Part shown: positions 11,319 to 43,538 of the stretch, piece by piece | Position numbering within the stretch: the stretch's first letter is position 1 | Layout: every line of letters begins with the position of its first letter | Assembly: GCA_958296135.2 (NCBI GenBank) | Contig: CATQHZ020000001.1 | Span: 64,001-128,000, forward strand | Reading direction: 5' to 3' | Length of the DNA stretch: 64,000 bases | Origin: an uncultured Poribacteria bacterium | Lineage (GTDB): Bacteria > Poribacteria > WGA-4E > WGA-3G | Notes under the pieces: model-generated | What the model saw: the letters and a program-made list of their open reading frames with translations, nothing else | Databases searched by the model: none | Told to the model about the DNA's origin: nothing | Made by a program: the position numbers and the translations under genes

Positions 11319-14297
11319 CTACTCAATGCCGAGTTCACGGAGATGCTCATCTGCCTCTCGTTTCCACTGTTCCGGCGGGTTTAATGCCAAGAACCGTTTC
11401 CACTGCTCCCGCGCCTGTTCCCGTTTCTCCCGGTATTCATACATGAGCGCAAGGTTGTAGTTAGCCGTCAAGTTCCCCGGGTCCAGTTGGATAACGCGCT
11501 CAAACTGCTCCGTCGCTGCGCCGAGTAAATCCATGCTGAAGAGCGTATTGCCATAATTGAGCAGCGTCGGCACGTGCGATTCGTCTAAAGCGAGTGCCTT
11601 CTCCAATGTCTCTTTGGCGGCGTTGTAATCCAATGCATGCGCGTAGTAGAGCTCACCGAGGTTTTGATACGTCCCGATGGCTATGTCATCGGTTGCATCT
11701 TGAATCAGTGCCGCTTCCTTCTCATACTGCGCGATTGCACCTTTCCAATCCTGTTCCCATGCCGCAATTTTACCGAGGTGCAAATGCGCGCCCCGGTAGT
11801 TCGGGGAGAGCGACAGCACCTTTTCAAACGCCGCTTTCGCCAACCGGTGCCGGTCTATCTCCAAATAGATGACACCCACCGTGTAGTGTGCCTCCACGTT
11901 TCTCGGCTGCAGTTCTGCCACCTGCTTGAAATCCTCCAGAATCTGGCTGTAGCGATAGAGCGTTGCGCCAATCTGCTTGTAACGCAGTGTCAGCATGCCG
12001 CGATGGAAGTAGGCATCGACATAGCCTCCGTTGAGAGACAGCGTTGTGGTATATTCGGTCACGGCGAGTTCCGCGGGTTCATGATAGTCGTCCCCGAGGG
12101 TTTCTGCGTGTCTATCCAGCAAGCGCGCATACCGATAGTGCCACTCAAAGTTCTCCGGCGCGTAATGATTCGCTAATTTGTAGTGATGGAGAGCGCGCTC
12201 CCAAACATAGGGTTCGCGGGGGACAGGCTCCTGCGCTACGTTACCTATTTCTTGACCGGGAGGAGAGCCCGCCCGTTCCCGATTTTCTCCCCGGTTCTCA
12301 AAAATACCCGCGAGCAGATAGTGAAGTTCCGGATGGTTCGGCTCCAATTCTAATGCTGGCGGATAGACGCGGATGAGGTTTTCTTCGTCGTTGCGTTTGC
12401 GATAGATGGCACCGAGTCGGAAAAACGGTTCAGCGTTAGTCTTGTCGAGAGCAATGGTGTTTTCATACTGCGCAATGGCGTTGTCAATATCGCCTTTCTG
12501 TTCAAATAGGATGCCGGCTTGGTAGTGCGCGGTGACATTATCGGGTGTCACGCGTGTGGTTTCAAGAAAGGCTGCCAATGCTGCATCGGGTTGATTGAGT
12601 GCCAGATACGCCTGTGCAGAGATATAGTGTGCTTCGGCGTTATCGGGTTCCATCGCAATGATTTGCTTTAAGGCCTCCACAACTTCCCCATGCGCGCCAG
12701 CTTCACGGTAAATGTGAACCATCTTAAAAATCACATCGGGCCGCGCTGCGTCCAATGCCAGCGTCCGTTTGTAAAAGTGGAGTGCCTGCTTAGTATCGCC
12801 GAGTGCCTCGTAGCTCTGGCCGAGCAGATAGGTGGCGGCGATGTCCTCGGGGAAAAGCAAGAGGTGCGTATTGAGCGGCTCAATCGCATGGGGATAGTCT
12901 GCATCGTCAAACGCGTGCTGTCCCTGTTCGATGAACATGTCCGCCACTGCCGGATTTAATTCGATGGCACGTTGGAAGTAGGTGCTTGCTGTCTCCGCAT
13001 CCCCTTGTCGGTGGTGGAGTTCGCCGAGTTTGAGGTAAACGTCGTTGAAATGTCCTACCGGCAGTTCCATCTCTAGATACCGAGGTTCCGCCGCTATGAT
13101 TTCAAGCGTTTTCTCATAGTACGCGATGGCCCCTTCAATGTTCCCCGTGTCCGCTTCAAGGATGCCTGCGTAAAAGGAGACGCGCGCATCATCCGGTAGC
13201 ACAGCCCTCGCTTTGTCTAAGATTTCTGTCATTCGCGAGGCGTTCGGCGCGCGTTTTTCGTTTGATGACGTTGTCAAGCCTGGCATCCCTGTCTCGCCTT
13301 CAAAATAGGGCCGCAGCGGCTCAAAAAAAGCGTTCTCCAGACTGGGCATCAGCGCGAGTGCCAGCCGATAGTGATGGACAGCCGTCGCCGTATCGCCTTC
13401 CGCATAGAGCAGGGCGGCGAGGGAAAAATGGATAGGCGCGTTTTCTTTTTCAATTTCCAAGGCGCGTTGATAGAGTTGTATCGCGCCGGATGCATTGCCG
13501 CCATCCCTGAAGATATTGGCGAGTTCCGCAACTGTTTGTGCCGAATAGGGCTGATATTTCGCGCCTTTCGCATATTCTTCCAGGGCCGCGGCAAAGAAAC
13601 CTTCGGTGGCAAGCACCTGTCCGAGCTTGAAATAGGCGGGTGCGAATTTCTTTTTCTGCTGGATAAGTTTCTCGAACGCCTCCCGCGCGCCGTTCGTATC
13701 GCCTTCGGCGAACGCGACTAAGCCGAGTCCATAGCGCGGGTATTCCCACTTCCGGTTTAACTGGTGCGCTGTCTCAAACGCCGTGCGCGCTTCAGCGGTG
13801 TTCCCCGCTTTCAGGTGAATCTCGCCGATGCGGTAGTAGACAGGATAGTAGTTCGGATTGAGTTGGAGGCACGCCTCAAATTGCGCGAGGGCATAGGCGT
13901 TCTCGTTTTGCTGCTGATAGACACCGCCGAGGTTAAAGCGCGCCCAAAACAGCCCCGGGTCTAGCTCCAGGGCGCGGTGAAAAGCGGTGACGGCCGTCGC
14001 CAGTCCCGTGTCGGTGCCGTGCAGCGCGTGCGCGTAGCCGAGGCCGTAAAAGAAAGCCGCGTCTGTTTCGCGACGCGCTTTTTCTTCGAGATACAGCGTC
14101 CGGACTGCTGCCAGATGTCCCCGTTTTTCCCATTTGATGGTAAAGTCGCGATGTTTTTCGGTTGGTTTTTTCTTCTCGCGCAGCACCTTCGCGAAGTCCT
14201 TTTGCATATCGGTGTGCCATTTCTCTGCGGCGAGCCCTGGCATCACGAGCGTGAGAAGGAGTAGCGATGCCAAAAGCCAGCTCTGTGTGATTTTCAC
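11319..14297 (-). CDS. large exported tetratricopeptide-repeat protein
   Basis: Many TPR units (A...Y.RAL.L.P); signal peptide after GTG at 14297 with GGAGG RBS (ORF extends to 14369). Confidence 0.9.
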   Translation of the reverse strand: MKITQSWLLASLLLLTLVMPGLAAEKWHTDMQKDFAKVLREKKKPTEKHRDFTIKWEKRGHLAAVRTLYLEEKARRETDAAFFYGLGYAHALHGTDTGLATAVTAFHRALELDPGLFWARFNLGGVYQQQNENAYALAQFEACLQLNPNYYPVYYRIGEIHLKAGNTAEARTAFETAHQLNRKWEYPRYGLGLVAFAEGDTNGAREAFEKLIQQKKKFAPAYFKLGQVLATEGFFAAALEEYAKGAKYQPYSAQTVAELANIFRDGGNASGAIQLYQRALEIEKENAPIHFSLAALLYAEGDTATAVHHYRLALALMPSLENAFFEPLRPYFEGETGMPGLTTSSNEKRAPNASRMTEILDKARAVLPDDARVSFYAGILEADTGNIEGAIAYYEKTLEIIAAEPRYLEMELPVGHFNDVYLKLGELHHRQGDAETASTYFQRAIELNPAVADMFIEQGQHAFDDADYPHAIEPLNTHLLLFPEDIAATYLLGQSYEALGDTKQALHFYKRTLALDAARPDVIFKMVHIYREAGAHGEVVEALKQIIAMEPDNAEAHYISAQAYLALNQPDAALAAFLETTRVTPDNVTAHYQAGILFEQKGDIDNAIAQYENTIALDKTNAEPFFRLGAIYRKRNDEENLIRVYPPALELEPNHPELHYLLAGIFENRGENRERAGSPPGQEIGNVAQEPVPREPYVWERALHHYKLANHYAPENFEWHYRYARLLDRHAETLGDDYHEPAELAVTEYTTTLSLNGGYVDAYFHRGMLTLRYKQIGATLYRYSQILEDFKQVAELQPRNVEAHYTVGVIYLEIDRHRLAKAAFEKVLSLSPNYRGAHLHLGKIAAWEQDWKGAIAQYEKEAALIQDATDDIAIGTYQNLGELYYAHALDYNAAKETLEKALALDESHVPTLLNYGNTLFSMDLLGAATEQFERVIQLDPGNLTANYNLALMYEYREKREQAREQWKRFLALNPPEQWKREADEHLRELGIE

Positions 14298-14610
14298 GGT
14301 TTTTTCCTCCGAGTCAGTTTTTGGTTGTTTGCGATAGGATAAGGTGGCGTGCATTGTCCGCAAAAGCACACCGCGTTCCGAAATGAATCAATATAGTTCC
14401 CGAACAGAGCAAGTTCAAATGAAGGTTCAAAATAATTGGGTAATTTTTCGCAGGGGTGCTGGCTTAGCATGGGGACTGAGCGACGGTTGCAGAAATAACC
14501 CAAATTAGCATCAGAAACGTAGGCATTGACAACGTCGATGACGGTTCTACGTCAACACACGTGATTGCACCAATCACCCTAACCGAACGTATTGCGACGA
14601 ATAAAAAGCC

Positions 14611-16899
14611 TCATTGAACGAAAAGAAAAGCGCGCGAGGTGATGAGTGCCCAAAGCAGGTCTTCGCTTCCCTCACGCCGCGTTGGACTGTCCGCAAGGTA
14701 GGCTGTCGCCGTGGCGAGTTCCGCCGCTGTCGGAAAGCGGGACAAGGTGCGGAGATACAGTTCCGTGATGAGTTCCCGATTCTCGCGGTGTGTTTTCAAC
14801 AGGCGAGTGAGGGCTCCGTCCCGATGACGCAACTTTTTCTGCACATAAGGTGCGTTGATGAGATGGAGGGCCTGCGTCAGCGTCGGTTCCAGTTTCGAGG
14901 ATAAGTCACCCAGGAACTCCCGCTCGGAACGGCCAAACAGCGACAAGAAGCGTGAACTGACAGGCAGAGGCAGTTGCACAGTGCGCGTGCCCATCGGATA
15001 CCGTCCATATTTTTCCTGTGTGCCAGTTACGTCGTTGAGCACATCAAGCAGGGTGTGCGCGTTCATCGGGCGTGGGAAGAACCGCGAGAAGAACCTGTCA
15101 TCCAATTCATTCGTCTCGTTCGGCACGGCGGAGAGTTGATACATTCGCGAATTGAGGATTTGCCGGATGACATGCTTCGGACTGAACCCGCTTTCCACAA
15201 AATCAGCGGCGAGTGCTTCGAGGAGCCCCTCCACACTTGGCGGCGTTGTGGCGCGCATGTCGTCTACGGGTTCAACGATGCCCCTGCCGAAGTAGTAGCT
15301 CCAGATGCGATTGACAGTGGCTCTAGCGAAGTAAGGGTTCGTACCCGAGGTCAGCCACTCGGCGAGGCGTTGTAGCACATCGCCTTGATAGTTTGCAGGC
15401 AACGTTGCACCAGCGAGGAACGTCGGCTGCGCGACTTCACCGCGGTTGCCCTGCACGGACTGATTGATGACGCGTCCCGTCGGATTATAGTAGACAACCT
15501 GTTCGTTGTAGAGTTCACCCGCGCGGGTGCCGACTTTTCCAGTGAAGGCGGCGAAGTTCCAATAATCGTCGGTTGTCCATCTATCAAACGGGTGTTTGTG
15601 ACATCGCGCGCAGCTAAGCCGGATACCGAGGAACACTTGTGCCGTCGTCTCGGCTCTGCCAGCGGGTTGCCGCTCGATGCGGTAGTAGTTAGTCGCTCCG
15701 TGTTGATAAGTGCTGCCCCGCGCCGTGATGAGTTCCCGAACGACTGCATCGTAAGGTTTATTCTGCGCGACGGTGTCGCGCACCCACTCGTGAAAGAGCG
15801 TCGCGCCGCGTTCGCCGAACGCGCCGTTGCCCAAGTCGCGGGGATGGATGCGTAGCATATCGGCGAGTGCCAAGGTGCGGACATCCACCCATGCGGACGT
15901 ATCAAGGAGTTTGTCGATGCACCGGGCGCGCTTGTCCGGGTGTGTATCGGCAAGAAACGCGCGGACTTCTTCCGGTGTCGGTAATCTACCGACGGTATCC
16001 TGATAGAGCCGGCGCAAAAACTCGGTATCGGTGGCGAGAACCGAGGGCTGAACGTTCAGTTTCTTCAGTTTCGTGAAGACCAGCTCGTCGATATAATTGA
16101 CAGGCGTTGGAAAGTCTGCATCGGATACGATTGCCTCGCGGGGCAGCGTGATGAACGCCGCGGTTACCACGCCGAGGTAGCGCGCGAGGATGGCGGTGCC
16201 GCCCCAGCGGAGCCGGGCGACTTCCCCAGTTGCGTTGACTTCTGCGATGGCCGGGTCCTTCGATTCATAGACAACTTGCGCGGTGACATCTTCGACGGAG
16301 CCGTCTGTCCAGTGCGCGAGCACTTTCAGGGATGCAGTTTCTGTCGGCGATGTCAGCACCACCTCGCTCGGGTGGATTTCCAGTTTCGCGAGGCGCGGTG
16401 CGTCGGCAGGAAACGGCGCGCCGGCTCGTATCCAGCGCAGCATCGTTAACGCCTCATCAGAACCGGGCTCAAACCGCACGCCGCCTTCGTGCGGCACCTG
16501 TCCGGTCGGCTTGAGGAGGAAGAGGCTCCGTGCCGGTTCGAGCAGGTTGACACGTCTGCCGCGGTTGTGATGGACAATCGGTTCGTAATCGGATTCAGGG
16601 TTAAGCGTGAGCAGGGAGAGGTTGAACCCGCCTTGCCCACCGAATTTGCCGTGACACATGCCGGCGGAGCACCCCTGTTTATCCAAAATCGGGGCGATGT
16701 CTCTGAGGAACTGTGGCGTTTCACCGGTGATGTTGGCGTGCGCGGATGCCAGCGTCACAGTGAACAGCAAGAGAACGGAAGCCACAAACTTAGCCCTCGG
16801 AACGTAGCCATTGACACCGTCGATAACGGCCCTGGGAAGACACCTTTGAAATGACCAGGGTTGCTGTGCGAACGCGTTGCGAAATACAGAGAATTTCAT
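14611..16899 (-). CDS. DUF1549/DUF1553 (Planctomycete PSD1-type) protein with Ig-like domain
   Basis: CSAGMCHG, FLRRLYQD..GRLPT, CARCHKHPFDRWT, NPYFARATVNRIW, GRGIVEPVDD. Confidence 0.9.
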   Translation of the reverse strand: MKFSVFRNAFAQQPWSFQRCLPRAVIDGVNGYVPRAKFVASVLLLFTVTLASAHANITGETPQFLRDIAPILDKQGCSAGMCHGKFGGQGGFNLSLLTLNPESDYEPIVHHNRGRRVNLLEPARSLFLLKPTGQVPHEGGVRFEPGSDEALTMLRWIRAGAPFPADAPRLAKLEIHPSEVVLTSPTETASLKVLAHWTDGSVEDVTAQVVYESKDPAIAEVNATGEVARLRWGGTAILARYLGVVTAAFITLPREAIVSDADFPTPVNYIDELVFTKLKKLNVQPSVLATDTEFLRRLYQDTVGRLPTPEEVRAFLADTHPDKRARCIDKLLDTSAWVDVRTLALADMLRIHPRDLGNGAFGERGATLFHEWVRDTVAQNKPYDAVVRELITARGSTYQHGATNYYRIERQPAGRAETTAQVFLGIRLSCARCHKHPFDRWTTDDYWNFAAFTGKVGTRAGELYNEQVVYYNPTGRVINQSVQGNRGEVAQPTFLAGATLPANYQGDVLQRLAEWLTSGTNPYFARATVNRIWSYYFGRGIVEPVDDMRATTPPSVEGLLEALAADFVESGFSPKHVIRQILNSRMYQLSAVPNETNELDDRFFSRFFPRPMNAHTLLDVLNDVTGTQEKYGRYPMGTRTVQLPLPVSSRFLSLFGRSEREFLGDLSSKLEPTLTQALHLINAPYVQKKLRHRDGALTRLLKTHRENRELITELYLRTLSRFPTAAELATATAYLADSPTRREGSEDLLWALITSRAFLFVQ

Positions 16900-19442
16900 G
16901 AGAATATCTCCTTAAAAACTTCGGTGATGTGTTCCACGAAGAGGAACGTCATTCCCGATTGAATCTCTTCCGGAATCTCGACAAACTGTTTTTGGTTCTC
17001 ACGTGGGACGATAATCTTCTTGATGCCGGCCTGTTTGGCGGCGAGGATTTTCTCCTTGAGCCCACCGATGGGCAAGACTCTGCCGCGGAGCGTAAGTTCC
17101 CCTGTCATCGCGATTTCTGGGCTGATGCAATGGCCTGTGGCGACAGAGGCAAGGGCGGTGGCAATTGTAATGCCGGCAGAGGGGCCATCCTTGGGAATCG
17201 CACCCGCGGGGACATGGATGTGGATGTCGGCATCCAACACGCCCGAGTCAAACTGGAGTGTATCCGCCTGCGATTTGACGTAACTGAGCGCGGTTTGTGC
17301 GGATTCCTGCATAACATCGCCGATTTGTCCGGTGATGCGGAGCGTGCCGCTGCCATCCGCGCGCCTCGCATGCATCGTGACTTCCACAAATAGGATTTCG
17401 CCGCCGGCTGGGGTGACAGAGAGCCCGGTGGCGACACCGATGTCCGCCTGACGCCCGGCAACCTCGGCAGAGAACTTCGCAGGGCCGAGGTAATCCGGAA
17501 GGCTCTCGGCTGGAATCGCGGCCTCCGCCGCTTCGCCTTCGGCGACGCGGCGTGCCACTTTTCTGCAAAGGGTGCCGAGTTCGCGCTCCAAGTTGCGCAC
17601 GCCGGCCTCGCGGGTATACGCGCTGATGACGGTATCAATCGCCGCATCGTCTACCTGCAGTTGGGCCGCTGACAAACCGTTCGCGGTAAGCTGGCGCGGC
17701 AGAAGATACTGCTTAGCAATCTGCAGTTTCTCGTTGGCGGTATAGCCGGCGAGCTCTAGCGTCTCCATCCGGTCGCGCAGCGCAACGGGAATCGTGTCAA
17801 GTTGATTCGCCGTAGTGATGAACATCACGTTGGAGAGATCGAACGGCACATCAAGGTAGTTGTCGGTGAAGGCGTGGTTCTGCTCCGGGTCCAGCACTTC
17901 AAGCAGGGCGGCACCCGGGTCGCCGCGGAAATCAGAGCCGAGTTTGTCAATCTCATCAAGCATGAAAACCGGATTGTTGGATTCGGCGGTGCGGATGCCT
18001 TTCAGAATGCGCCCCGGCATTGAACCGATATAGGTGCGACGGTGTCCGCGGATTTCTGCTTCATCGTGCATACCACCTAGGGACACGCGGACGAACTTCC
18101 GGTCCATGGCGCGGGCGATGGAGCGGCCGAGTGAGGTTTTGCCTACCCCCGGCGGACCGACGAAACAGAAAATGGGGCTTTTCAGTTCGGGCGCGAGGCC
18201 CCGTTCAGTGCCACCGTTACTAGAGCCGGAAGACTTGACAACGTCCATACCGCCCGGTAAGTCAGCCGTCTCTCCCTCGGTGGTGTCCGACGAACGCTTT
18301 ACACGAGTCCGAAGCATTTGCACGGCGAGGTGCTCGACAATCCGCTCTTTGACCTTCTCTAAGCCGTAGTGGTCTTCATCAAGAACGGTTTGCGCAGCGC
18401 GTAGCTCCAGCGCATCTTCGGTGCTCACCTGCCACGGCAGATTGAGGAGCCAATCGAGGTAATTCCGCGAGACGGTAGATTCAGGGGAGAAGGACTGCAT
18501 CTTGGTGAGGCGGTTGAGTTCCTTTTCCGCTGTTTGCTTCGCCTTTTCGGGCATCTCGGTGTTTTGGAGTTGCTCCCGGAGTTCCTCCATTTCCAGCCCG
18601 AGGTCTTCTGCCTCGCCGAGTTCAGTCTGGATAGCTTTGAGTTGTTCGCGGAGGTAGTATTCGCGTTGCCCTTTGTTAATAACGGCTTGCGCGCGGTTTT
18701 GGATGTTACTCTCCAATTCGTGCAAATCGAGCTCGCGGGCGAGGATGACAGCCAGCGCGTTCAACCGCTTCGTCACAGACACTGCCTCTAAAATCCGCTG
18801 CTTATCAGCGGGTTTTAAGTCAAGCACAGCGGCGACGTAATCGGCAAAGCGGCCGGGCTGCTCAATGTTTTTGGTGAGGCTGCCGTATTCGTCGGGGTAG
18901 CGGGTGGACATGGAGACAATCCGCTGGAACATTTCGTCGTTGCTGCGGAGGAGTGCCTCGACTTCCATGTTGGTTTTGCCCAGGTCTTCTTCTCTGTCGC
19001 GTGCTTCGCTGTTGACGACAGCGACGCGCGCGGTGATAAAGGGTTCCGTGGAGAGAATTTCTTCAATCGCCACCCGCTCGCGTCCGTGCGCGAGGAAAAG
19101 GACATCCTCGTCCTCTTTCTTATAGCGGAGGATATGGATGAGACTGCCGATGGGGCTCAGGTCTGGTGCTGTGATATTTTTGATATCCTCAGACGGGATG
19201 TCCGGATTCGGGCGGAAGATGCAAAGCCCGCGCTCGCTCTTCATGGAGGCCTCAAGCGCAGCCTTCGCCATGTCGCCGGAGAGCGCGACGTGGTGCGGCG
19301 GAAACGGCGGCACTGGCGGCATATACGGAAAAACCACCAGGTCATCGAGCGGCAGGATGGGGAAGTCCCTGTTCGGTTTCTCTTTGGGTTCGCTGTTTTC
19401 GCGATGTTCGTTCTGTGATATTTCTCTCTCTAGTGTTTCCAT
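16896..19442 (-). CDS. lon: Lon (endopeptidase La)
   Basis: GPPGVGKTS, RGHRRTYIG, PKDGPSAG, IGGLKEK; start at 19442 from AAGGAG RBS. Confidence 0.97.
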   Translation of the reverse strand: METLEREISQNEHRENSEPKEKPNRDFPILPLDDLVVFPYMPPVPPFPPHHVALSGDMAKAALEASMKSERGLCIFRPNPDIPSEDIKNITAPDLSPIGSLIHILRYKKEDEDVLFLAHGRERVAIEEILSTEPFITARVAVVNSEARDREEDLGKTNMEVEALLRSNDEMFQRIVSMSTRYPDEYGSLTKNIEQPGRFADYVAAVLDLKPADKQRILEAVSVTKRLNALAVILARELDLHELESNIQNRAQAVINKGQREYYLREQLKAIQTELGEAEDLGLEMEELREQLQNTEMPEKAKQTAEKELNRLTKMQSFSPESTVSRNYLDWLLNLPWQVSTEDALELRAAQTVLDEDHYGLEKVKERIVEHLAVQMLRTRVKRSSDTTEGETADLPGGMDVVKSSGSSNGGTERGLAPELKSPIFCFVGPPGVGKTSLGRSIARAMDRKFVRVSLGGMHDEAEIRGHRRTYIGSMPGRILKGIRTAESNNPVFMLDEIDKLGSDFRGDPGAALLEVLDPEQNHAFTDNYLDVPFDLSNVMFITTANQLDTIPVALRDRMETLELAGYTANEKLQIAKQYLLPRQLTANGLSAAQLQVDDAAIDTVISAYTREAGVRNLERELGTLCRKVARRVAEGEAAEAAIPAESLPDYLGPAKFSAEVAGRQADIGVATGLSVTPAGGEILFVEVTMHARRADGSGTLRITGQIGDVMQESAQTALSYVKSQADTLQFDSGVLDADIHIHVPAGAIPKDGPSAGITIATALASVATGHCISPEIAMTGELTLRGRVLPIGGLKEKILAAKQAGIKKIIVPRENQKQFVEIPEEIQSGMTFLFVEHITEVFKEIFS

Positions 19443-19602
19443 TTTTTCTCCTTTTGCATGGCTTTCGGCAAACGTGCCGGGAAGCGTAGACGTTTTCCTA
19501 CCAGGTCCCATCGATGTTGTTGATGTTTACGTTTTCTGTCCTTGCCCGAACTACAGAAAGGGAGGACTGAATCACTCTGGGCTTTATCGGCAGAGGTGTT
19601 TT

Positions 19603-22684: not shown

Positions 22685-22696
22685 GGGGTGCCTCCG

Positions 22697-23311
22697 TTAC
22701 GCTTCGGGCTCTTCTGGGAGTGCGAGGACTTCGTCAAGATCGATGTCACTCAGATGTTCTTCTTTGAGCTGCGTGCCGAGAATAATAAGCGCATCGGCGA
22801 GCGTAAGCCGGTCTACTTTGCCGATGTCAAGTGTCTCAGTTTCGGCAGCCAGGTCTGCGCGGAGTGCCTCGTGGTTGCGATGCGTCTGCTCGCGCATTCG
22901 CTGCGTCTCAGTGCTGAGCCGGTCGATTTGCGTTTGGAACTCGCGGGCGAACTCGTTGATGAGGGTGGACAACTTCTGCAAGTCGTCTTCGCCCTGATGC
23001 GTAATGCCGTTGAGCCGCGCATCGATGCGCGCATCAATCAGTGCCTCAATCCCCTGCGGGAGTTTCCGAATTTCCGCTTTGAGTGCTTCGACTTCGGCGA
23101 GGACCTGTTTTTCGAGCGCGGCCAGTTTTTCGTCGGCGCGCTTTTCGCTCTCTTCTACCTCGCGGCTGAGCGCGCGCAGCCGTTTGTTAACACTGCGGAT
23201 ATAACTACCGATGATGCTTTCGCGCAGGTAAGATTCGATTTCCTGCTGCCGAGATGCGGGTTCCTGCTGCGTCTCAGTCGCCTGCGATTGCGGAGTGCTG
23301 GGTGTTTGCAT
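22697..23311 (-). CDS. hypothetical coiled-coil protein
   Basis: 204-aa helical, charged ORF co-oriented with its neighbours; GAGG RBS. Confidence 0.7.
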   Translation of the reverse strand: MQTPSTPQSQATETQQEPASRQQEIESYLRESIIGSYIRSVNKRLRALSREVEESEKRADEKLAALEKQVLAEVEALKAEIRKLPQGIEALIDARIDARLNGITHQGEDDLQKLSTLINEFAREFQTQIDRLSTETQRMREQTHRNHEALRADLAAETETLDIGKVDRLTLADALIILGTQLKEEHLSDIDLDEVLALPEEPEA

Positions 23312-23323
23312 GGTTCAATTCCT

Positions 23324-24426: not shown

Positions 24427-24456
24427 ATTATACCCTATCTGTTTGGGGTTTGTCAA
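24427..24456 (-). promoter_or_regulatory. sigma70-type promoter for the aldolase-to-Lon gene run
   Basis: TTGACA-18 bp-TATAAT on the minus strand. Confidence 0.55.
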
Positions 24457-34147: not shown

Positions 34148-34343
34148 GAATTTTTTTCCGCGGGCGATGGACGGATAGAACCATCCGCCCTTACACGCCT
34201 AGAACGGGTAATTTTTTCCGCGGGCGATAGACGGATAGAGCCATCCGCCCTGCCAGTCGGGGGCGATGGCTGCAGCGTTGCGGCATAACGGCCCTCGCCC
34301 TACGAACCGCAGCCCGGCGGCGCAGTCTCAAACCGCGCCTACC
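34148..34343. repeat. rpoB-rpoC intergenic repeat cluster: two ~44-bp direct copies plus REP palindromes
   Basis: ttttttccgcgggcgat(g/a)gacggataga.ccatccgccct at 34148 and 34210; related copy at 48356. Confidence 0.75.
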
Positions 34344-34371
34344 GAGGACTACTACGGGCACCTGACACGGA

Positions 34372-37300
34372 TTACTTTTCTTCAGGCGGGTTCAGGGAGA
34401 CGCTGAGGCCGAGCCCCTGGAGCTCGCGCACAAGAACGTTGAAAGACTCCGGCGTGCCGGGGGTTTCAGGGTTGCGTCCCTTTACCACCGCCTCGTAAAT
34501 TTTCGCTCTGCCCCTGAAATCGTCGGATTTGAGCGTGAGCATTTCCTGGAGGGTGTGCGCTGCGCCGTAGGCCTCCAATGCCCACACCTCCATCTCACCC
34601 AGCCGCTGCCCGCCGTGCTGCGCCTTGCCGCCTAACGGCTGCTGCGTAACAAGCGAGTAAGGGCCAGTTGAACGGGCGTGCATCTTGTCGGCAACGAGGT
34701 GGTTCAGTTTGAGGAAATAAACATATCCCACCGTAACCTCCTGGCCGAAGGGTTCACCCGTTCTGCCATCGTAAAGGATGCTTTTCCCGGTCTGTTTGCT
34801 ACGCTCGGGCAGGTGCGTCTTCGCGAGTTGCCCGAAGATTTCCTGCTCAGTCGCGCCGTCAAAAACGGGGGACTCGGCGTAGATGCCCAATTCATGGCAC
34901 GCCCATCCGAGGTGAATCTCAAGAATCTGCCCCACATTCATGCGCGATGGCACGCCCAGCGGATTCAGCACGATATCTACCGGCGTGCCATCGGGCAGGT
35001 AGGGCATATCCTCTTTCGGCAAAATCTCTGCCACCACGCCTTTGTTGCCGTAGCGGCCGGCCATCTTATCGCCGATGGAAATGTGGCGTGTGGTAGCGAC
35101 ATAGACTTTGACAAGTTTAATCACGCCTTGTTTGAGTTCATCGCCGAGTTCCATCTGCTTGAGCGACATCGCTTTCTCTTCGGTGTAGGCCGCGATGCGC
35201 TCATCAGCGATTTCCTCAACGCGCTGGATGTAACTCATCGCCTTCAAATCGGCGACGCGGATATCGCTGAGGACAACGCCGGGTGTCTGGAGGAGTTCCC
35301 CTGTCACTAAGTCGCCGGCTTCTGCAAGCGGTTTGAAGGTGACATCGGGTACTGCGTCATCGTCGCCATCATTGGCGCGTAAGAGGGCCGCTTCGGTGAC
35401 GAGACTCTCGAAAATAGGTTCCGCCAATTCGCATCCGATGAGGGTGTTCCGAATTTCCTCATCCCGCCGCCGGCGAATAGCACGAAGATGCGCCTGGTAG
35501 GTTTCGTCTATCTCCTTCCGCTTTGCGTCGTATCGGAGCTGGTCTGCGTCAGCGAAGCTCTGCGGCCCAGGCTTCCGGGTTGGCTCCTGTTTTCTTGTGA
35601 AGACTTTCACGTCAATCACGATGCCTTCAATGCCGGGTTTGACATAAGTCGAAGCGTCTCGGACTTCGCGCACCTTTTCACCGAAGATGACGTGCAGCAG
35701 TTTTTCCTCCGGTCCGTAATCGCTTTCGCCTTTCGGCGTAATCTTACCGACGAGGATGCTACCCGCGCCAACAAGGCTCCCGACACGGATGATACCCTCT
35801 TCGTCCAGCTGCGAGAGCCGTTGGTCGCTCATATCGGGGATATCGCGCGTAATTTCTTCCGGGCCCATCTTCGTCTCTCGCGCCTCCACCTCAAATTCCT
35901 CGATATGGATGGAACTAAAGGTAGCATTTTGCACAAGCGTATCACTAATGAGGATGGAATCCTCGTAGTTATGCCCACCCCACGGCATATAGGCGCACAA
36001 GACGTTCCGGCCAAGCGCGAGTTCGCCTTCCTCGGTGGAAGTACCATCGGCGATGACATCGCCTGCCGCCACTTTATCGCCGACAGAAACGATAGGACGC
36101 TGATGGATGCACGTGCCGCTGTTGCTCCGCTTGAAAGTGTGGAGTTGATACCGGTCGTACCCCATCTCACTCTTGTGTTGTTCGCCGATGTCTGCGTGAA
36201 GTGCCTCATCGGTATGAATGATGATATCCTCGGCGGAGACGCTCTCGACGGTGCCGCTGCGTTTGGCGATGCCGAGGGCCCCTGAATCCCGGGCGACGCG
36301 TACCTCCATGCCGGTGCCGACAAGTGGGGCTTCTGGCGTGATGAGCGGCACTGCCTGTCGCTGGTGATTCGCGCCCATCAAAGCCCGGTTCGCGTCTTCA
36401 TGCTCTAAAAAGGGCACAAGTGCAGCAGACACACCGACAATCTGCGAGGGTGACACGCCGACGTAGTCCACCTCGGCTAGCGGTAAAGAGAAGATATCTT
36501 CGCCTTTCCGCGCAGGCAGATGAATCCCGGTGTCGCGTGTCTGATGTCCGTTTTTCACCCCGCGGGGTGCAGCTTTGGCGGCGATGCACGCCCGGTCCTC
36601 CCTATTCGCGGTGAGGTATTCGATCTTCAGCTCCTCCAAGGGTTTGCCGGGCTGCACCTTGTAATAAGGTGTCTCGATAAACCCATACGGATTTATCCGC
36701 GCATAACACGCCAGTGAGACAAGCAATCCGATAGAGGGGCCTTCCGGTGTCTCTAACGGACAGACGCGCCCGTAGTGTGTGTGATGCACATCGCGAACAG
36801 CAGCGGTGGCTCTGTCGCGCGAGAGTCCACCGGGCCCGATGGCTGAGATGCGCCGCTTGTGCGTCAATTCATCAAGCGGGTTTACCTGCTGCATGAACTG
36901 CGACAACTGGTTTGAACCGAAGAACTCGCGGAGAGAAACCATCAGCGGCTTCGGGTTAATCAGGGCTGTCGGCACGCAGGTGCGCATATCCGCTGAGGAG
37001 ATACGTTCTCGCGTTGCACGCCGAATCTGGAATAAGCCGATGCCGAATTGGTTTTCGAGCAATTCTCCGATAACCCGCACGCGGCGGTTGCCGAGGTGGT
37101 CCAAGTCGTCCTTGGGCACGAGGCCGTTTTGGACATCAAGGAGGTGCCGCAGCGTCGCCGCGATGTCCTCCGGGCGGAGCGCGCGGAATTTCTCATCTGG
37201 CCGTTCGCCATAGATGGCGAGATGTCCGAGTTTCTCGTTGATTTTGTAACGGCCGACAGTGCCTAAGTCGTAGCGATGCGGGTCAAAGAAGTGCCACGTC

Positions 37301-38928
37301 AGCTGCCGCTGCGCCGCCTCAACGGTAGCAGGTTCCCCCGGGCGGAGGATTTTGTGAATCTCGATAAGTGCAGCGTCCTGAATCGGCGTTTCGCTCTGCC
37401 GTCCAGTAGCGTTTACGCTTGGCGGGTAGTCCGCCTCTTTATCGCGTTCCAGTGTATTCCGTAAGAATCGGAGGGCTTTGGCATCTTCCGGTGCAAGGAC
37501 GGTAAGTGTCTCGATACCAGCATCGCGGAGACGTTCAACTTCTGTCTCAGTGAGCAGAGTATTCGCTGTTACGAGCAGTTCCCCGGTTCTCGGTTCGACA
37601 ATAGGTTCGGCACAGACGCTGCCGAGCGTGTCGTGGATATCTGTGGGTTCAAGTTCCGCCACCGAGAAGTTGCCGCGGTGCATTGCAAGCATTTCGGTGT
37701 ATTCCGTCGGCGTGAGGACTTGGCCTACTTTCAAAGGACAGCCTGTATTCAGAATGTTAGTAACCTGAAGGAGGCGTTCGGTTGTGAACCCTTTCCACTT
37801 CCGGCGTTCGCGGGTGCGTTCGGGCGACGTGAGCATCTGCCCCTCTTCAAGCGGGCACCCTTTGTCGATAACGGAGGTGACACGATAGCACGGTTCGATT
37901 TCAATGCCGGGATATGCCTTCAGTGCCTTTTTATACTTTTCATCTGGCACAATATCGCCGATAGCGTAGGGGCAGTCTGTCCGGTAGAGCGTCGTGACGT
38001 GCCAGACGCGTGCAAATGTCGTCGTCTTCCACGTTTTGCGATGCTGTGCCCACTCGTTCTGTGTGAGCCTATCGCCGACTGCGACGGGGCACGCTGCATC
38101 AGGGACATCGACAACTTCGTAGAAGCGTTCTGCTGCGAAGCCCGGATATTTGGCATCGTAGTTCCGATGTTCCGCAGCAGTGAGGCAATCGCCTATGCTG
38201 AGGGGGCATTCCGGGATAGGCACTTCGGTGACGCGCCAGCCGGCAAGCACGACGCGCGTCGGCTCAGCGAACAGTTTCAAGATATCGGCATCCGTTCCCC
38301 ATCCGAGCGCGCGGAGGAGCACGGAAGCAGGTATTTTCTTGCGCTTATTTAAGCGGACATAGAGCTGGTCCTTCGAGTCCGTCTCAAATTCCACCCAGGA
38401 GCCGCGGTAAGGGATGATCTGGGCGGTGTGCGAGCGTTGTCCGCTCGGGAGCACCTTATCCATAAAAATCACACCGGGGGAACGGTGCAATTGGTTGACG
38501 ATGACGCGTTCGCTGCCGTTGATGATGAAGGAGGCGTTCTCTGTCATCAACGGGACTTCGCCGAAATAGACATCGGACTCGCGGATATCGATGATGTGCG
38601 GTTCGTCGTCCTCGGTATCCTTCTCACAGACGATGAGCCGGAGGCGCGCGGTGAGGGATACCTGATAGGTGACACCTCTAGCGAGACACTCGTCAAGTGT
38701 GTATTTGGGCTCGCCGAGTCGATAATACACGAATTCGAGACGCGACACCTCGCTGAAATCGGCGATAGGAAACACTTCTTGGAAGACAGCTTGCAAGCCG
38801 CTATCGGCGCGGTGTTGGGGCTGCGTATCGCGCTGCAAAAAATTTGCATAGGCGCGCTGCTGTGTCTCAATCAAATTTGGGAGGGGCGTGCGAACGTCTG
38901 TTTTGGCGAAAGAGAGGCGTTTTTTCAT
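34372..38928 (-). CDS. rpoB: DNA-directed RNA polymerase subunit beta with a five-unit repeat insertion
   Basis: QLHRSPG, ETPEG, GDKMAGRYGNKG, GGQRLGEMEVWALEAYG. Confidence 0.98.
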   Translation of the reverse strand: MKKRLSFAKTDVRTPLPNLIETQQRAYANFLQRDTQPQHRADSGLQAVFQEVFPIADFSEVSRLEFVYYRLGEPKYTLDECLARGVTYQVSLTARLRLIVCEKDTEDDEPHIIDIRESDVYFGEVPLMTENASFIINGSERVIVNQLHRSPGVIFMDKVLPSGQRSHTAQIIPYRGSWVEFETDSKDQLYVRLNKRKKIPASVLLRALGWGTDADILKLFAEPTRVVLAGWRVTEVPIPECPLSIGDCLTAAEHRNYDAKYPGFAAERFYEVVDVPDAACPVAVGDRLTQNEWAQHRKTWKTTTFARVWHVTTLYRTDCPYAIGDIVPDEKYKKALKAYPGIEIEPCYRVTSVIDKGCPLEEGQMLTSPERTRERRKWKGFTTERLLQVTNILNTGCPLKVGQVLTPTEYTEMLAMHRGNFSVAELEPTDIHDTLGSVCAEPIVEPRTGELLVTANTLLTETEVERLRDAGIETLTVLAPEDAKALRFLRNTLERDKEADYPPSVNATGRQSETPIQDAALIEIHKILRPGEPATVEAAQRQLTWHFFDPHRYDLGTVGRYKINEKLGHLAIYGERPDEKFRALRPEDIAATLRHLLDVQNGLVPKDDLDHLGNRRVRVIGELLENQFGIGLFQIRRATRERISSADMRTCVPTALINPKPLMVSLREFFGSNQLSQFMQQVNPLDELTHKRRISAIGPGGLSRDRATAAVRDVHHTHYGRVCPLETPEGPSIGLLVSLACYARINPYGFIETPYYKVQPGKPLEELKIEYLTANREDRACIAAKAAPRGVKNGHQTRDTGIHLPARKGEDIFSLPLAEVDYVGVSPSQIVGVSAALVPFLEHEDANRALMGANHQRQAVPLITPEAPLVGTGMEVRVARDSGALGIAKRSGTVESVSAEDIIIHTDEALHADIGEQHKSEMGYDRYQLHTFKRSNSGTCIHQRPIVSVGDKVAAGDVIADGTSTEEGELALGRNVLCAYMPWGGHNYEDSILISDTLVQNATFSSIHIEEFEVEARETKMGPEEITRDIPDMSDQRLSQLDEEGIIRVGSLVGAGSILVGKITPKGESDYGPEEKLLHVIFGEKVREVRDASTYVKPGIEGIVIDVKVFTRKQEPTRKPGPQSFADADQLRYDAKRKEIDETYQAHLRAIRRRRDEEIRNTLIGCELAEPIFESLVTEAALLRANDGDDDAVPDVTFKPLAEAGDLVTGELLQTPGVVLSDIRVADLKAMSYIQRVEEIADERIAAYTEEKAMSLKQMELGDELKQGVIKLVKVYVATTRHISIGDKMAGRYGNKGVVAEILPKEDMPYLPDGTPVDIVLNPLGVPSRMNVGQILEIHLGWACHELGIYAESPVFDGATEQEIFGQLAKTHLPERSKQTGKSILYDGRTGEPFGQEVTVGYVYFLKLNHLVADKMHARSTGPYSLVTQQPLGGKAQHGGQRLGEMEVWALEAYGAAHTLQEMLTLKSDDFRGRAKIYEAVVKGRNPETPGTPESFNVLVRELQGLGLSVSLNPPEEK

Positions 38929-39168
38929 TTTTCGTATTTCCTAGCGGTTGTTTAGCTACCTCTGTGACGAAAACGTTGTTGAACCAGGGCCAGCAACGCC
39001 ATTAGCGATGACGATGACGATGACGATGTCGATGTCGATGTCCTTGGTCCTTCTTCTCTGCCAGGAAAGGAGGCTAGTGATTTTTTAGCGTTTTTCTAAC
39101 GTGGTTTGAAAACAACGAAAAACAAGCGGATTCTATCTCAATTTTATGCAAATATAGCATAACGTAAA

Positions 39169-39197
39169 ATTATACTACATTTTTTAGCAAATGTCAA
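39169..39197 (-). promoter_or_regulatory. consensus sigma70 promoter for rpoBC
   Basis: TTGACA-17 bp-TATAAT with an AT-rich upstream tract. Confidence 0.75.
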
Positions 39198-39882: not shown

Positions 39883-41219
39883 ACACAACGTCACACCACT
39901 CCGTTCCTCGTAGCGCGGGGCCCTGTCCTCCGCCCTGTCCTCTGCCCTGTCCTCCGCGATGCCTCGGCCCTCAGGAGGTTCTCGTAAAAAAAGGGCCCCG
40001 AGGCCAACAGAACAAAAACGTCGTCATTGACAATGTCAATGAGGGTGCTCGTAAGGCAACTGTCTCTCAATTAGGGAGACTGGCCGAACGCCTGGCGATA
40101 TACAAAAAACTCGCGGTCATTTTTTTAACGCTGTTGACTCATACCCCGATAGTTTCTCAAGAAGCGGAGGTGCCTCGTGCGCGGGCACGGGAGCTCGGCA
40201 TTCGGATAGGGCAATTCTCACCGGGTGAAAACAACGCCATCACCGATGTGCCAGGCGTGAAGGTGGGACATGTCACGCTGAATGAAGGCGAGTCCCTCCG
40301 CACCGGTGTCACCGCTGTCGTGCCGCGGGAGGATATATGGGAGGCGCGGCTGTTTGGCGCGGCGCATGTCATACACGGCAATGGCGAGGCAACCGGCATC
40401 GCACGCATCAACCAAGCCGGTTGGATCGAATCGCCCATCTTGCTCACGAACACGCTGAGTGTCGGACCGGTTCACGATGGCGTTGTCCGGTATATCGTCA
40501 AGCGGTATCCTGATAACAACATTGTACTGCCGATTGTTGCAGAATGTTACGATGGCGGTTTGAACGACATTGATGGACTCCACGTCACCGCAGAACACGC
40601 AATTCAGGCGATAGAGAACGCTACCGCCGGCCCTGTCGCAGAAGGCTGTGTGGGCGCAGGCACGGGAATGCGGTGCTACGGCTTCAAAGCCGGAATTGGC
40701 ACTGCCTCGCGGGTGCTGCCACCCGAACGCGGCGGATGGCGAGTCGGGGTACTCGTTAATTCCAACGGCGGACGGCGGCATCAGTTGCGGATTGACGGCG
40801 TGCCAGTGGGACAAGAAATTACGGATGTTCGCGCAAAACGGGGCAGAGACGGCTCGTTTATCATCGTCATCGCGACAGATGCACCGTTAACGCATCGCCA
40901 GTTGAAACAGATAGCGGTGCGCGCGACGCACGGCCTTGCGCGCACCGGCACCCCAAGCACAGACGGCAGCGGCGAGTTCGTCATCGCATTCTCCACGGCG
41001 AACGTAATCCCAGACGATACGGCAGACGGCACCTTTCCGATTCGGATGACGGAAAATTGGCGGTTGAGTGCCCTCTTTCAGGCAGCAATTGAGGCGACAG
41101 AGGAGGCAGTTGTCAATTCAATGACGATGGCGACGACAACCGTCGGCCGCAACGGGAATACGATGTATGCTATTCCGTTGGAGCGGTTGCAACAGGTAAT
41201 GGAGAAATATGGACGTTAG
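39879..41219 (+). CDS. P1/S58 (DmpA-like) aminopeptidase; true start may lie downstream of the repeat-derived N-terminus
   Basis: NAITDVPGVKVGH, GAGTGM, DGSFIIVIATDAPL autoprocessing site, EATEEA. Confidence 0.9.
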   Translation: MNTTSHHSVPRSAGPCPPPCPLPCPPRCLGPQEVLVKKGPRGQQNKNVVIDNVNEGARKATVSQLGRLAERLAIYKKLAVIFLTLLTHTPIVSQEAEVPRARARELGIRIGQFSPGENNAITDVPGVKVGHVTLNEGESLRTGVTAVVPREDIWEARLFGAAHVIHGNGEATGIARINQAGWIESPILLTNTLSVGPVHDGVVRYIVKRYPDNNIVLPIVAECYDGGLNDIDGLHVTAEHAIQAIENATAGPVAEGCVGAGTGMRCYGFKAGIGTASRVLPPERGGWRVGVLVNSNGGRRHQLRIDGVPVGQEITDVRAKRGRDGSFIIVIATDAPLTHRQLKQIAVRATHGLARTGTPSTDGSGEFVIAFSTANVIPDDTADGTFPIRMTENWRLSALFQAAIEATEEAVVNSMTMATTTVGRNGNTMYAIPLERLQQVMEKYGR

Positions 41220-41297
41220 GCCCCGTAGGCGCAGTTTGGCACCGCGCACAGGACGATTTAGTTCTCCCAAATTCGGTTCATTTTCACCGGCGGGCGG

Positions 41298-43538
41298 CTA
41301 TTGAACGCTTTGCACCAATACGAACGACTTTGGCACGACATCGTAATGCGAAAACTCTAACGTGAACGCACCGCGGCCCTGTGTCATAGAACGGAGTGAC
41401 GTTGTGTATTGGAACGTTTCTGACAACGGAATCAGGGCTTTGATAATGGTGACTGTCTCCTGACGCATCCCACTCTCATGAATCTGGGCGCGGCGGGCAT
41501 TCAGGTCACCGATGACTTTGCCGACATGCGCGTCTGGGACAGTGACATGTATCTGCATGATGGGTTCGAGAAGCAACGGGTTCGCCTTTCTCACCGCATT
41601 TTCAAAAGCGAGGACAGCGGCCGCTTCATACGCTATTTCTGAGGAATCTGTCGGATGCATAGAACCCCCGGTGAGCGTTACCTTGATGTCCTGCAGTGCG
41701 TATCCGATGAGCGCGCCTGTCCCCATCGCGCGGCGGAGCGCATGCTGAATAGATGGAATATAGTGGCGCGGTATATGAGTCTCGTCCGTGGTATCCGCAA
41801 ACTGAAAACCCGCGCCGCGTGCCAGCGGCTCCACGGTGAGAGTGACATCTCCGTAGATGCCTTCCTCGTCTGTCTTATGAATGTGTGTGCCGCGTGCTTC
41901 CGCCGCACTGCCGATGGTCTCCCGATACGCCACCTGCAATTGGCTCACCCGCGCGTTCACGCCGAATTCGCGCAGCATCCGGTCTGTCAAGATTTCCAAG
42001 TGGAGTTCACCCATCCCAGAGATGATGCGTTGTCCCGTCTCTTTGTCGATACCGACAGTGAACGTCGGGTCTTCGTCCATCAATTTCTGGAGTGTTTCCT
42101 CTAGCGCGTCTGCATCGCTAGCGCGTTCCGGTTCAATCGCAATGGAAATGACCGGGGGTGGAAAGTCGATGGAGGCGAGCAGGATAGGATGCGCCGGTTC
42201 TGTCAACGTATCCCCTGTTTTCGTATGCTTCAGGCCCACGAGCGCGACAATGTCGCCTGCGTAAGCGGCATCGCGCACCGCCTCTTTATTGGCGTGCATC
42301 TGGAGGATGCGGTTTATCCGTTCCCGTTTTCCGGTGCTGACGTTCATAACGACTTCGCCGCGTCTGAGCGTGCCTGAATAGACGCGGCAGTATACCAATT
42401 TATCGACGGTGGGGTGGCTTACCACCTTAAACGCTAGCGCAGAAAAAGGTGCTTCGTCGTTCGCCATGCGTTCGGCTTTTTCGTCGTTCGCGAGGCGTTC
42501 GGCTTTTTCGTCGTTCGCGAGGCGTTCGGCGTGCATCTCTGGTGGTGCGACAGTTGTCTTACCAGGGCCGTCATCAACGTTGTTGATGACTAGGTTTTGG
42601 ATGCTATTTTGGTACGGTAGGGCATCGGGGATTGTCCCTTGAATGGGGGGCACGTCAAGAGGCGATGGCAGAAAATTTATCACTGCATCCAGCAGCGGCT
42701 GAACGCCGACATTTTTCAAGGCACTGCCGCACAGCACTGGCACTAACGTTCCGTTCAGCGTCGCAGTGCGGATGCCCCCCACTAATTCTGCGCATGTGAG
42801 TTCCTCACCGGCGAAATATTTTTCCAGCAGCGCGTCATCTTCGGCGGCGACGCTTTCACAGAGGTTCTCCCGCGCGCGGGCGATTTGCTCGCGTGTCGGT
42901 AGCGCAGGCGACTCGCCCCCATGCTCACTCAGCTGCCAAAGTTCAACTTCACGATAGGTTTGCCCGAAGTCTTCCGAGTTCCAGTAGAGTGCCTTCTGTG
43001 TGAGAAGATCGGTGATGCCGACGAAGGTGTTTCCTTCACCGATAGGCAACTGAAGGGGCAGTGGGTTTGCGCCAAGCCGTTCATGCATCATCGCGAGGGT
43101 GCGGGCGAAATTCGCGCCGACTCTATCCATCTTATTGACGAATGCGATACGCGGGACACCGTAGCGTTCCGCCTGATGCCAGATAGTCTCGGACTGTGGC
43201 TCCACGCCACCGACAGCACAGAAGAGCGCGATGGCACCATCTAAAACGCGCAGCGAACGTTCGACTTCTACCGTGAAATCGACGTGTCCGGGGGTATCGA
43301 TGAGATGCAGCGCGCAGTTGTGCCAGAAACAGGTAGTTGCAGCAGCGGTGATAGTCACGCCGCGCTCGCGCTCCTGCACCATCCAATCCATCTCGGCGGT
43401 GCCATCGTCTACCGTGCCGATTTTATGTTTCTTGCCGGTAGTGTAGAGGATACGTTCGGTGACTGTCGTCTTGCCAGCATCGATGTGCGCGGCAATGCCA
43501 ATGTTACGAACGTGCTGAATCGAAGTATCACGTGCCAT
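41298..43538 (-). CDS. fusA: elongation factor G (stand-alone, divergent copy)
   Basis: [38 protein letters not shown]. Confidence 0.9.
42549..42590 (-). repeat. best-conserved copy of a dispersed ~38-bp hairpin element (in frame inside EF-G)
   Basis: GTCATCAAC-AAC-GTTGATGAC-GGCCCTGGTAAGACAAC; relatives near 13262, 14522, 16807, 18232, 19491, 22594, 24574, 38974, 40023. Confidence 0.8.

Follow-up and report, generated by a model that had tools for sequence, protein, structure and literature searches.

A probable selfish repeat with a tagged hairpin, found between, ahead of and inside housekeeping genes of a Poribacteria-like genome

The 64 kb stretch of contig CATQHZ020000001.1 analysed here (the window, numbered from its first nucleotide) comes from one genome and encodes PSCyt2/PSD1-family proteins, Lon, FumC, RpoB, RpoC, EF-G and others. 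Among and inside these genes lie 11 copies of a short repeated element with a hairpin near its 5' side, and all the element DNA copies described below are taken from this stretch. An earlier note on the same DNA had proposed a non-autonomous element comparable to the Rickettsia palindromic elements (RPEs) that adds peptide segments to proteins, a proposal now supported by filled and empty sites in orthologues, by frequency controls and by conservation at the nucleic acid level. We consider it likely that the copies belong to a selfish, non-autonomous repeat family of the RPE or repetitive extragenic palindromic (REP) type in a Poribacteria-like genome. The nature of the host is suggested by sequence matches: the closest relatives of the window's Lon protein (65-73%) are encoded by four Candidatus Poribacteria genome bins whose loci (L001-L004) are syntenic with the window across fumC, a CapA-like gene, a DUF6785 gene, lon and a PSCyt gene, and more distant EF-G relatives also carry the source name Candidatus Poribacteria.

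An initial nhmmer profile, built from the copies listed in the earlier note, matched eight sites with E values of 1.5e-14 to 2.5e-10 and gave weak matches at 38967-39054(-) and 13267-13289(-). With a full-length profile, eight copies scored 62-81 bits, set against a best score of 10.9 bits in 20 shuffled windows, so that the comparison of frequency with a shuffled control favours a genuine family. A covariance model that includes the hairpin, and in which the conserved unit occupies 108 positions, finds 11 matches in the window, comprising eight full copies (75.6-104.3 bits) and three degenerate ones; the same model finds none in 1.30 Mb of comparison DNA made up of the Lon loci of 80 other genomes, the four syntenic Poribacteria loci included, and nhmmer agrees. 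Even the 17-nt tail motif alone, allowing up to three mismatches, yields four matches where 0.14 are expected, a number reached by none of 100 shuffles. All ten sites listed previously were recovered by nhmmer and the covariance model, one of them, at 19491(-), proving to be a full copy (82.3 bits) and not the degenerate one it had been called, and an eleventh was added at the fusA start codon. No match to Rfam was found between 13000 and 43700 at E values up to 1, and at the gathering score the whole window returned only two tRNAs. One copy compared by blastn with plasmid and phage collections likewise gave no match, and no description of the element was found in the literature at the level of titles and abstracts. 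All 11 copies are situated within 13216-43601 (30.4 kb of the 64 kb), with none in the first 13 kb or between 44 and 64 kb, a clustering that could be due to chance, local spread or a bias in gene content.

The element had been described as a hairpin of ~38 bp, but wider alignment extends the conserved unit to ~110-125 nt, a size that also follows from a 117-nt insertion in Lon and an insert of ~41 residues in a BamA-like protein (both below). Four sections can be recognised. A 5' arm of ~27 nt (..CCAAAnTAGCAnCAGAAA) ends in a degenerate CGTAG and leads into the hairpin, which has a stem of 6-9 bp and a 3-nt AAC loop; there follow a non-palindromic tail, composed of GGCCCTGGTAAGACAAC, ~20 variable nucleotides and CCGAACGCnTnGCGAA, and an A-rich end, GACAGAAAAA. 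What follows the hairpin amounts to ~70 nt, and long and short variants differ by 2 nt immediately after it. The tag directly 5' of the stem in the eight full copies is GTAG (two copies), GTAA (two), CTAG, GTCG, GCAA or GGAA (one each), giving a majority consensus of CGTAG next to the stem; the element therefore does not simply lack a GTAG end, as had been stated. A second conserved hairpin in the tail was considered and rejected, since the eight tails fold no better than shuffled sequences (z between -1.83 and +0.52) and in the RNAalifold consensus nothing remains but the first hairpin and a CGC/GCG stem of 3 bp. Two copies show internal expansion: in EF-G a 27-nt 3' module is present as three tandem repeats at 42453-42533 (family D7), and in the rpoB leader the stem arms have grown to hexamer runs, (GACATC)3(GTCATC)3, at ~39005-39045(-). 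None of the 11 window copies forms an inverted dimer.

Filled and empty sites in orthologues, the comparison called for when the element was first described, are available for two proteins of the window. The copy inside lon, antisense to the gene at 18186-18321(+) (75.6 bits at 18214-18321), is associated with an in-frame insertion of 117 nt (39 aa) at 18186-18302 that reads RVKRSSDTTEGETADLPGGMDVVKSSGSSNGGTERGLAP, within which the element appears as ..ADLPGGMDVVKS... This insertion is found in one of seven aligned Lon proteins, that of the window, and is absent from all six others (four from Poribacteria, one from Planctomycetota and one from Thermodesulfovibrio). The copy inside the fusA-like EF-G gene, at 42453-42607(-), is in the sense orientation and in frame and gives the highest covariance model score of the set (104.3 bits at 42498-42607). 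Both inserts were placed by sequence alignment to solved structures: Lon residues 402-443 replace seven residues of 7p6u_A, between the N-terminal helical region and the AAA+ P-loop strand, and EF-G residues 307-359 replace seven residues (297-303) of 1dar_A where the G domain meets domain II. On this basis both fall in linkers of the solved homologues. An AlphaFold2 model of the window's EF-G (18-row alignment; mean predicted local distance difference test score, pLDDT, 34.8) was not used.

The relatives that carry the element were examined as proteins only. Seven of 18 aligned EF-G sequences have the insertion. The closest relative of the window protein, P0002 (87% identity), has no insert; P0003 and P0009 have a diverged copy at the same site; and P0004, P0005, P0006 and P0008 have a variant there and, in the G' region, a second copy (..DIDNVDVGL..). 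In the EF-Gs of more distant Poribacteria the insertion site is taken up by a short, unrelated linker. The window's own EF-G has some 10-14 extra residues in its G' region (residues ~203-213, ~42900-42940(-)), and as these occupy the exact place of the second copy in the relatives, they may be a remnant of one.

Two further copies lie inside predicted genes. That at 40006-40115(+) (91.1 bits) is in the sense orientation within the N-terminal 118 residues of an S58-peptidase ORF, whose Pfam domain begins at residue 119, and its predicted in-frame reading is QQNKNVVIDNVNEGARKATVSQLGRLAERLAIYKKL. The other, in the TPR gene at 13216-13283(-) (27.6 bits, E 0.0047), is an internally deleted sense copy made up of the hairpin 5' arm and the 3' module, and is read in another frame as GLTTSSNEKRAPNASRMTE. 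The intragenic copies seen all contain a whole number of codons and no stops, so that the host protein should gain a segment of 30-50 residues. Ribosomal bypass of inserted sequence has been reported for mitochondrial 'byp' elements; it need not be invoked here, as every intragenic copy seen is in frame and stop-free. The copy at 14505-14614(+) (80.6 bits) is intergenic, lying between the stop codon of a PSCyt2/PSD1 gene (14611, - strand), at which it ends, and the TPR gene; it is antisense to both, and its frame SIRNVGIDNVDDGSTSTHVIAPITLTERIATNKKP is open. The antisense hairpin of this copy, together with ..ACGTTT.., scores as a weak terminator-like site.

Searches with the encoded peptide reveal the family in proteins of related genomes. 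The profile was made from the sense frame of three window copies, to which three short ORFs from databases were later added. The encoded frame, ..VIDNVNDGSTxxHVIAPTxLxERLANDRK, recurs with good conservation in different host proteins and different genomes. Run against longer proteins, the first search identified seven proteins at E values up to 10 among 680 candidates, and the enlarged profile 34 proteins at E values up to 1 among 6729. According to precomputed Pfam assignments, the hosts include BamA-like proteins (POTRA plus Omp85, ~1100-1240 aa), a TPR protein, pyruvate:ferredoxin oxidoreductase (PFOR)-like proteins, a C25 peptidase-like protein, an ABC ATPase, class-I glutamine amidotransferases, GyrB, a Wza-like export protein, a UxaA-like dehydratase and a periplasmic binding protein-like protein, as well as several without domain assignment. 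Each host sequence inspected holds units such as ENVVIDNVNDGSTEKHAIAPTTVIERLANDRK, and hmmsearch of 51 stored proteins gives 79 unit matches in 48 of them. Up to four units are called in each BamA-like protein, with a fifth, frame-shifted unit visible by eye in P0121. Three of these proteins, P0121, P0122 and P0123, are 77-90% identical to one another and have at least seven sites, the occupancy of which differs among the three; the site-1 insert of ~41 aa carried by P0121 is missing from P0137. In a library of 1.84 billion representatives, the three-peptide profile found 12 proteins at E values up to 0.001, most of them ORFs of 38-138 aa that resemble miscalled intergenic copies, and two (P0129 and P0134) look like unrelated repeat proteins. 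With so few library proteins, and those mostly short and apparently miscalled, the family appears to be confined to a narrow clade.

What is conserved seems to be nucleic acid. Within the hairpin, 77.8% of cells (8 copies x 9 pairs) are paired, compared with 5.6-54.7% in slid controls, in which the 3' partner was moved by one to three columns. Four of the nine stem pairs have changed on both sides and none of 500 shuffles reaches the covariation score. The stem covariation around a 3-nt loop described in the earlier note is thus upheld, and with eight related copies it is supportive rather than decisive. In different genes, moreover, the element DNA is read in no fewer than three frames, sense or antisense: EF-G and the S58-peptidase ORF use one, the TPR gene a second (GLTTSS..PNASRMTE), and Lon, CapA and PSCyt antisense frames, with frame-shifted ..PNASRTT.. 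versions present in BamA-like proteins. All of the peptides quoted in the earlier note were found, namely those of EF-G, Lon (ADLPGGMDVVKS), CapA (LTYQAVLTLSS) and TPR (GLTTSSN), and its claim that different frames and strands are used inside proteins holds for these four.

The proteins of the relatives carry a trace of the same hairpin. Among 66 core pentapeptides, a set that includes orthologous copies and hence not only independent events, IDNVN (27) and IDNVD (20) are followed by IVNDD (8), INNVD (3), SDNVN (2) and SDNVT (2), with IDNVT, IANGD, VNNVN and IDNAD seen once each. In 65 of the 66, the two codons on either side of the central Asn can be exact reverse complements of each other, compared with a mean of 49.4 and a maximum of 56 in 1000 trials with shuffled partners, and four complementary codon-pair types are represented: Asp/Val, Val/Asp, Asn/Val and Ala/Gly. 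Taken together, the non-coding and antisense copies, the use of several frames and the compensatory changes in the stem point to conservation at the level of DNA (or RNA) and not of protein, as had been proposed.

Were the reverse the case, a short peptide motif would be selected in many proteins and the similarity in DNA would be secondary. Such a module would account for the conservation of one frame across host proteins and genomes, a frame that is open even in the intergenic copy 14505-14614 and the copy at 40006-40115. It is contradicted, however, by the copies in non-coding DNA and those antisense inside genes, and by the use of other frames (ADLPGGMDVVKS in Lon, LTYQAVLTLSS in CapA, GLTTSS..PNASRMTE in the TPR protein and PNASRTT-type readings in BamA); in addition, the succession D-N-V to V-N-D to N-N-V is sensible only as a series of palindrome-preserving changes in DNA. 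We regard a protein-level module as scarcely credible.

The copies are also biased towards gene starts. In six of the 11 the 3' end lies within ~10 nt of a start codon, four of them sense copies in leaders and two antisense copies inside the ORF. The location just 5' of lon, fumC and rpoB, already remarked upon, is confirmed and can be made more precise: in the four sense copies the A-rich end runs into the ATG of lon, fumC, rpoB or fusA. The lon leader copy, at 19437-19544(-) (82.3 bits), enters with its 3' end the native ribosome-binding region and the ATG (19442-19440); as AAGGAGAAAAAC-ATG is kept upstream of lon in L001-L004, all of which are without the element, the end of the copy merges with native sequence. 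The fumC leader copy, at 24556-24662(+) (88.6 bits), ends at the fumC ATG (24657), a start that matches that of L001 (MRTETDSMG), and has a promoter-like site upstream at 24464-24493(+). The degenerate copy in the rpoB leader, at 38922-39053(-) (25.0 bits, E 0.021), adjoins the rpoB ATG (38928) with its 3' end and lies downstream of a promoter that matches the sigma-70 consensus at 12 of 12 positions (39197-39169(-)). Given these upstream sites, the rpoB and fumC copies are probably transcribed as leader sequence. The fourth, at 43533-43601(-), which adjoins the EF-G ATG (43538), is a weak match (21.9 bits, E 0.12) to an internally deleted copy with the 5' arm and 3' module and no hairpin; nhmmer gives its 3' module an E value of 0.017.

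Of the two antisense copies, one lies at the very start of the PSCyt ORF and the other at that of the CapA ORF, each separated from the ATG by 6-9 nt. The first, at 16790-16899(+) (90.9 bits), has its A-rich 3' end ~6 nt from the ATG of a PSCyt2/PSD1 gene (16899), spans approximately codons 2-37 and lies directly below the lon stop codon. In L001, too, the lon stop and the PSCyt start overlap in ATGA, and relative to L001 the window gene has ~61 extra nucleotides right after the ATG, in an alignment that is weak at this divergence. The second, at 22576-22682(+) (89.8 bits), covers approximately codons 2-36 of the CapA-like ORF (FLSFALRRSAAAVQRRLTYQAVLTLSSLTFVCL), the region of a predicted signal peptide, and lies between the CapA-like gene and the stop codon of the gene at 22697-23311(-). 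The latter encodes a 204-aa protein with 53% identity to its L001 orthologue (E 3e-71), and the + strand ORF at 22676-23572, previously placed 3' of this copy, is spurious. Behind the gene-start bias may lie a preference for inserting where translation is initiated, or else the loss of copies from all places that do not tolerate them.

Such positions raise the question of whether the element is mainly a host cis-regulatory cassette, either an element of the 5' leader or of translation initiation, or an operator at which a dimeric regulator binds the palindrome, with the intragenic copies as by-products. Four sense copies reach an ATG (lon, fumC, rpoB and fusA), those of rpoB and fumC are downstream of promoter-like sites and would be transcribed as leader, and two more adjoin start codons from the coding side. 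Yet syntenic leaders exist without the element (four loci for lon, three for fumC), and those of lon keep their native ribosome-binding site; seven of the 11 copies are not sense leaders, being antisense, internal to lon, EF-G, TPR or S58 genes, or intergenic; the compensatory changes alter the half-site (TTGAC, TCAAC and CGTC-type), a misfit for one operator; and no copy is called as a sigma-70 promoter. We therefore judge this explanation unlikely. Two specific promoter readings were also discarded. The TTGACA of the stem was rejected as a -35 box because no copy passes the sigma-70 scan and good consensus promoters are found elsewhere; a promoter of the extracytoplasmic function (ECF) type, which we take to be AAC..CGTC, was dropped because its two parts stand too close together and the genes concerned are housekeeping genes.

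The ends of the element bear on a different alternative, that it is a MITE (miniature inverted-repeat transposable element). The unit, at 110-125 nt, is within the MITE size range; similar A-rich words occur at both ends of all copies (CAGAAAAC 5' and GACAGAAAAA 3'), and in some copies the two ends are more alike than the consensus, for example ACAAAAAC and ACAAAAAAC in copy 40023. In-frame fusions and sites just upstream of genes are also known for MITEs, as the relevant passages of PMC10969869 relate, and they describe the Correia/NEMIS and ERIC families as small, non-autonomous, often situated just upstream of genes, co-transcribed and occasionally fused in frame, all of which recalls the element. 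However, none of the four copies examined has terminal inverted repeats, the single sub-terminal hairpin being the only conserved structure, and the element also differs from MITEs in having no promoter-like hexamers and in its far more frequent intragenic use. The A-rich words, for their part, are common to the copies and to host proteins in relatives, in which the peptides begin ..EK and finish ..RK, so they behave as element sequence and not as site-specific duplications. To us a MITE is quite improbable.

RPEs and REPs offer closer parallels. Like an RPE, a repeat of ~100-150 bp with a palindromic core, the element is 110-125 nt long, has a hairpin of 6-9 bp and is present in 11 copies per 64 kb; like RPEs too, it is both intergenic and in frame in unrelated housekeeping proteins (here Lon, EF-G and BamA-like proteins) with a conserved peptide. 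The comparison with RPEs is one of descriptions and not of sequences. PMC10969869 gives a summary of RPE-type in-frame insertion; a surface position of the inserts is considered the reason why the host proteins stay functional (PMC10969869, PMC3733652); and PMC3733652 treats RPEs as REP-like elements with a CGTC tag. The present element differs in its tag, CGTAG as opposed to CGTC (PMC3733652), in its Poribacteria-like host, outside the Rickettsiales and with a large genome, a contig of 5.0 Mb being given for the window's EF-G in the protein database, and in its palindrome, which is confined to a short hairpin towards the 5' side with ~70 nt of non-palindromic tail behind it.

GTAG-tagged REPs have been described from PVC bacteria, including Opitutus terrae, with complementary-stem subfamilies, G-T pairs and intragenic copies (PMC3733652; Di Nocera and colleagues). 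The element may have in common with these a GTAG-like tag immediately 5' of the stem-loop (6-9 bp; PMC3733652), and it resembles them in its alternative complementary stem residues, G-T pairs and intragenic copies, some of which add residues, and in the co-occurrence of several REP families in one genome, as seen in the window. REPs are, however, 20-40 bp long, mostly downstream of genes, often arranged as inverted dimers and considered to be mobilised by REP-associated tyrosine transposases (RAYTs; Y1/HUH), whereas the element measures 110-125 nt and has a coding-competent tail, no dimers, a degenerate tag and a gene-start bias. It thus fails to qualify as a REP on size, dimers and location and as an RPE on tag and host: it works like an RPE with a REP-like head and is a member of neither family as defined.

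Under the selfish-repeat reading, the hairpin with its CGTAG-like 5' tag would be the recognition site of an enzyme acting in trans. Copies in both orientations have invaded spacers between genes, 5' leaders and coding sequence, and would persist where they do little harm, that is, as stop-free copies of whole codons in linkers and N-termini, or in leaders. Selective constraint would rest on one strand-specific hairpin and its 5' tag; the tail diverges into subfamilies. The other repeats of the window are likewise CGTAG plus a GC-rich hairpin (families D3, D4, D5, D13 and D15), and because the element's architecture matches that of the GTAG-tagged REPs filling the rest of the window, a RAYT-type Y1/HUH transposase acting on a single-stranded hairpin is, by analogy, the leading candidate for the mobiliser; we put this forward tentatively. 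Possible side effects for the host include a hairpin in the leader, a weak antisense terminator-like shape, new surface loops and a borrowed signal peptide.

A number of observations weigh against a selfish repeat of this type. A scan of 40 window ORFs gave no match to a transposase family; the unit exceeds a REP in length by a factor of 3-4 and shows an exact GTAG in just two of eight copies; and, terminal inverted repeats being absent from the four copies examined, the internal hairpin is the only inverted structure. No clean target-site duplication can be defined at the copy ends, and the available empty sites are too diverged in DNA for one to be read. The window copies average only 68% column identity and so give no sign of very recent bursts. 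Because relatives were seen as proteins, out-of-frame or gene-breaking insertions would be invisible, and because some matches are orthologues, the core counts are not counts of independent events. The empty EF-G site of P0002 could represent a loss instead of evidence of gain elsewhere, and the association with start codons (6/11) could reflect a host function in place of pure selfishness.

A more far-reaching version of the selfish-repeat reading, which we offer as a doubtful but attractive possibility, is that of a composite in which a REP-like head is joined to a coding-competent tail of ~30 codons; it would home to initiation regions and linker loops, would remain polymorphic among close relatives and would in some places have been co-opted by its host. 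This would make it the second independent large-scale case of selfish DNA in genes: Rickettsia is the best-known example of palindromic repeats that colonise essential genes in frame, REPs providing scattered cases in other bacteria, and the new case would come from the sponge-associated and marine phylum Poribacteria and not from an obligate intracellular parasite. Co-option would have supplied lon, fumC, rpoB and fusA with mRNA leaders, and CapA-like and PSCyt-family proteins with N-terminal or signal-peptide sequence, and, if the mobiliser is a RAYT, REP-type single-strand transposition would prove capable of remodelling essential proteins (EF-G, Lon, GyrB and BamA) proteome-wide. In this family polymorphic filled and empty sites are numerous (in EF-G, Lon, BamA, GyrB and PFOR), the compensatory evolution of the hairpin can be read even from protein sequences and the gene-start bias is clear, so that both its mobility mechanism and its effects on proteins are directly testable. 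In practical terms, the inserts make proteins longer, give rise to spurious small ORFs and extend N-terminal ORF calls, and they could serve as strain markers in Poribacteria metagenomes.

Several other repeats are present in the window. A classical REP family, GTAGGCGCGn..nCGCGCCTAC, forms a GC-rich hairpin with GTAG and CTAC ends and is found at 2721-2765, 9101-9145, 9694-9720, 27682-27726, 34319-34345, 41228-41254, 44722-44766, 47199-47243 and 55658-55702, by eye mostly in gaps between long ORFs. Further CGTAG-tagged families (CGTAGCGCGAGG..CCTCGCG and relatives) occur at 46535-46647, 54746-54981, 807-840, 11244-11292 and 39885-39933; the second of these locations is a tandem array with a 59-nt period, and one CGTAG-tagged copy falls within the N-terminal stretch of the S58-peptidase ORF, a short way upstream of the element copy at 40006-40115.

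Perfect TTGACA-N17/18-TATAAT promoters are found upstream of rpoB and of an aldolase-like gene, and a 31-nt promoter-like word (family D17) occurs both upstream of rpoB and upstream of two tRNA genes; these promoters and words are at 39169-39197(-), 24427-24456(-), 62418-62448 and 62468-62498. The RpoC (27782-34102(-), 2106 aa) and RpoB (34372-38928(-), 1518 aa) proteins have Pfam domains split by long gaps, and both seem long for bacterial subunits. Finally, 58174-59510 holds a cluster of small paralogous genes without a Pfam match that have repeats of 91-300 nt in common (D1 and D6).

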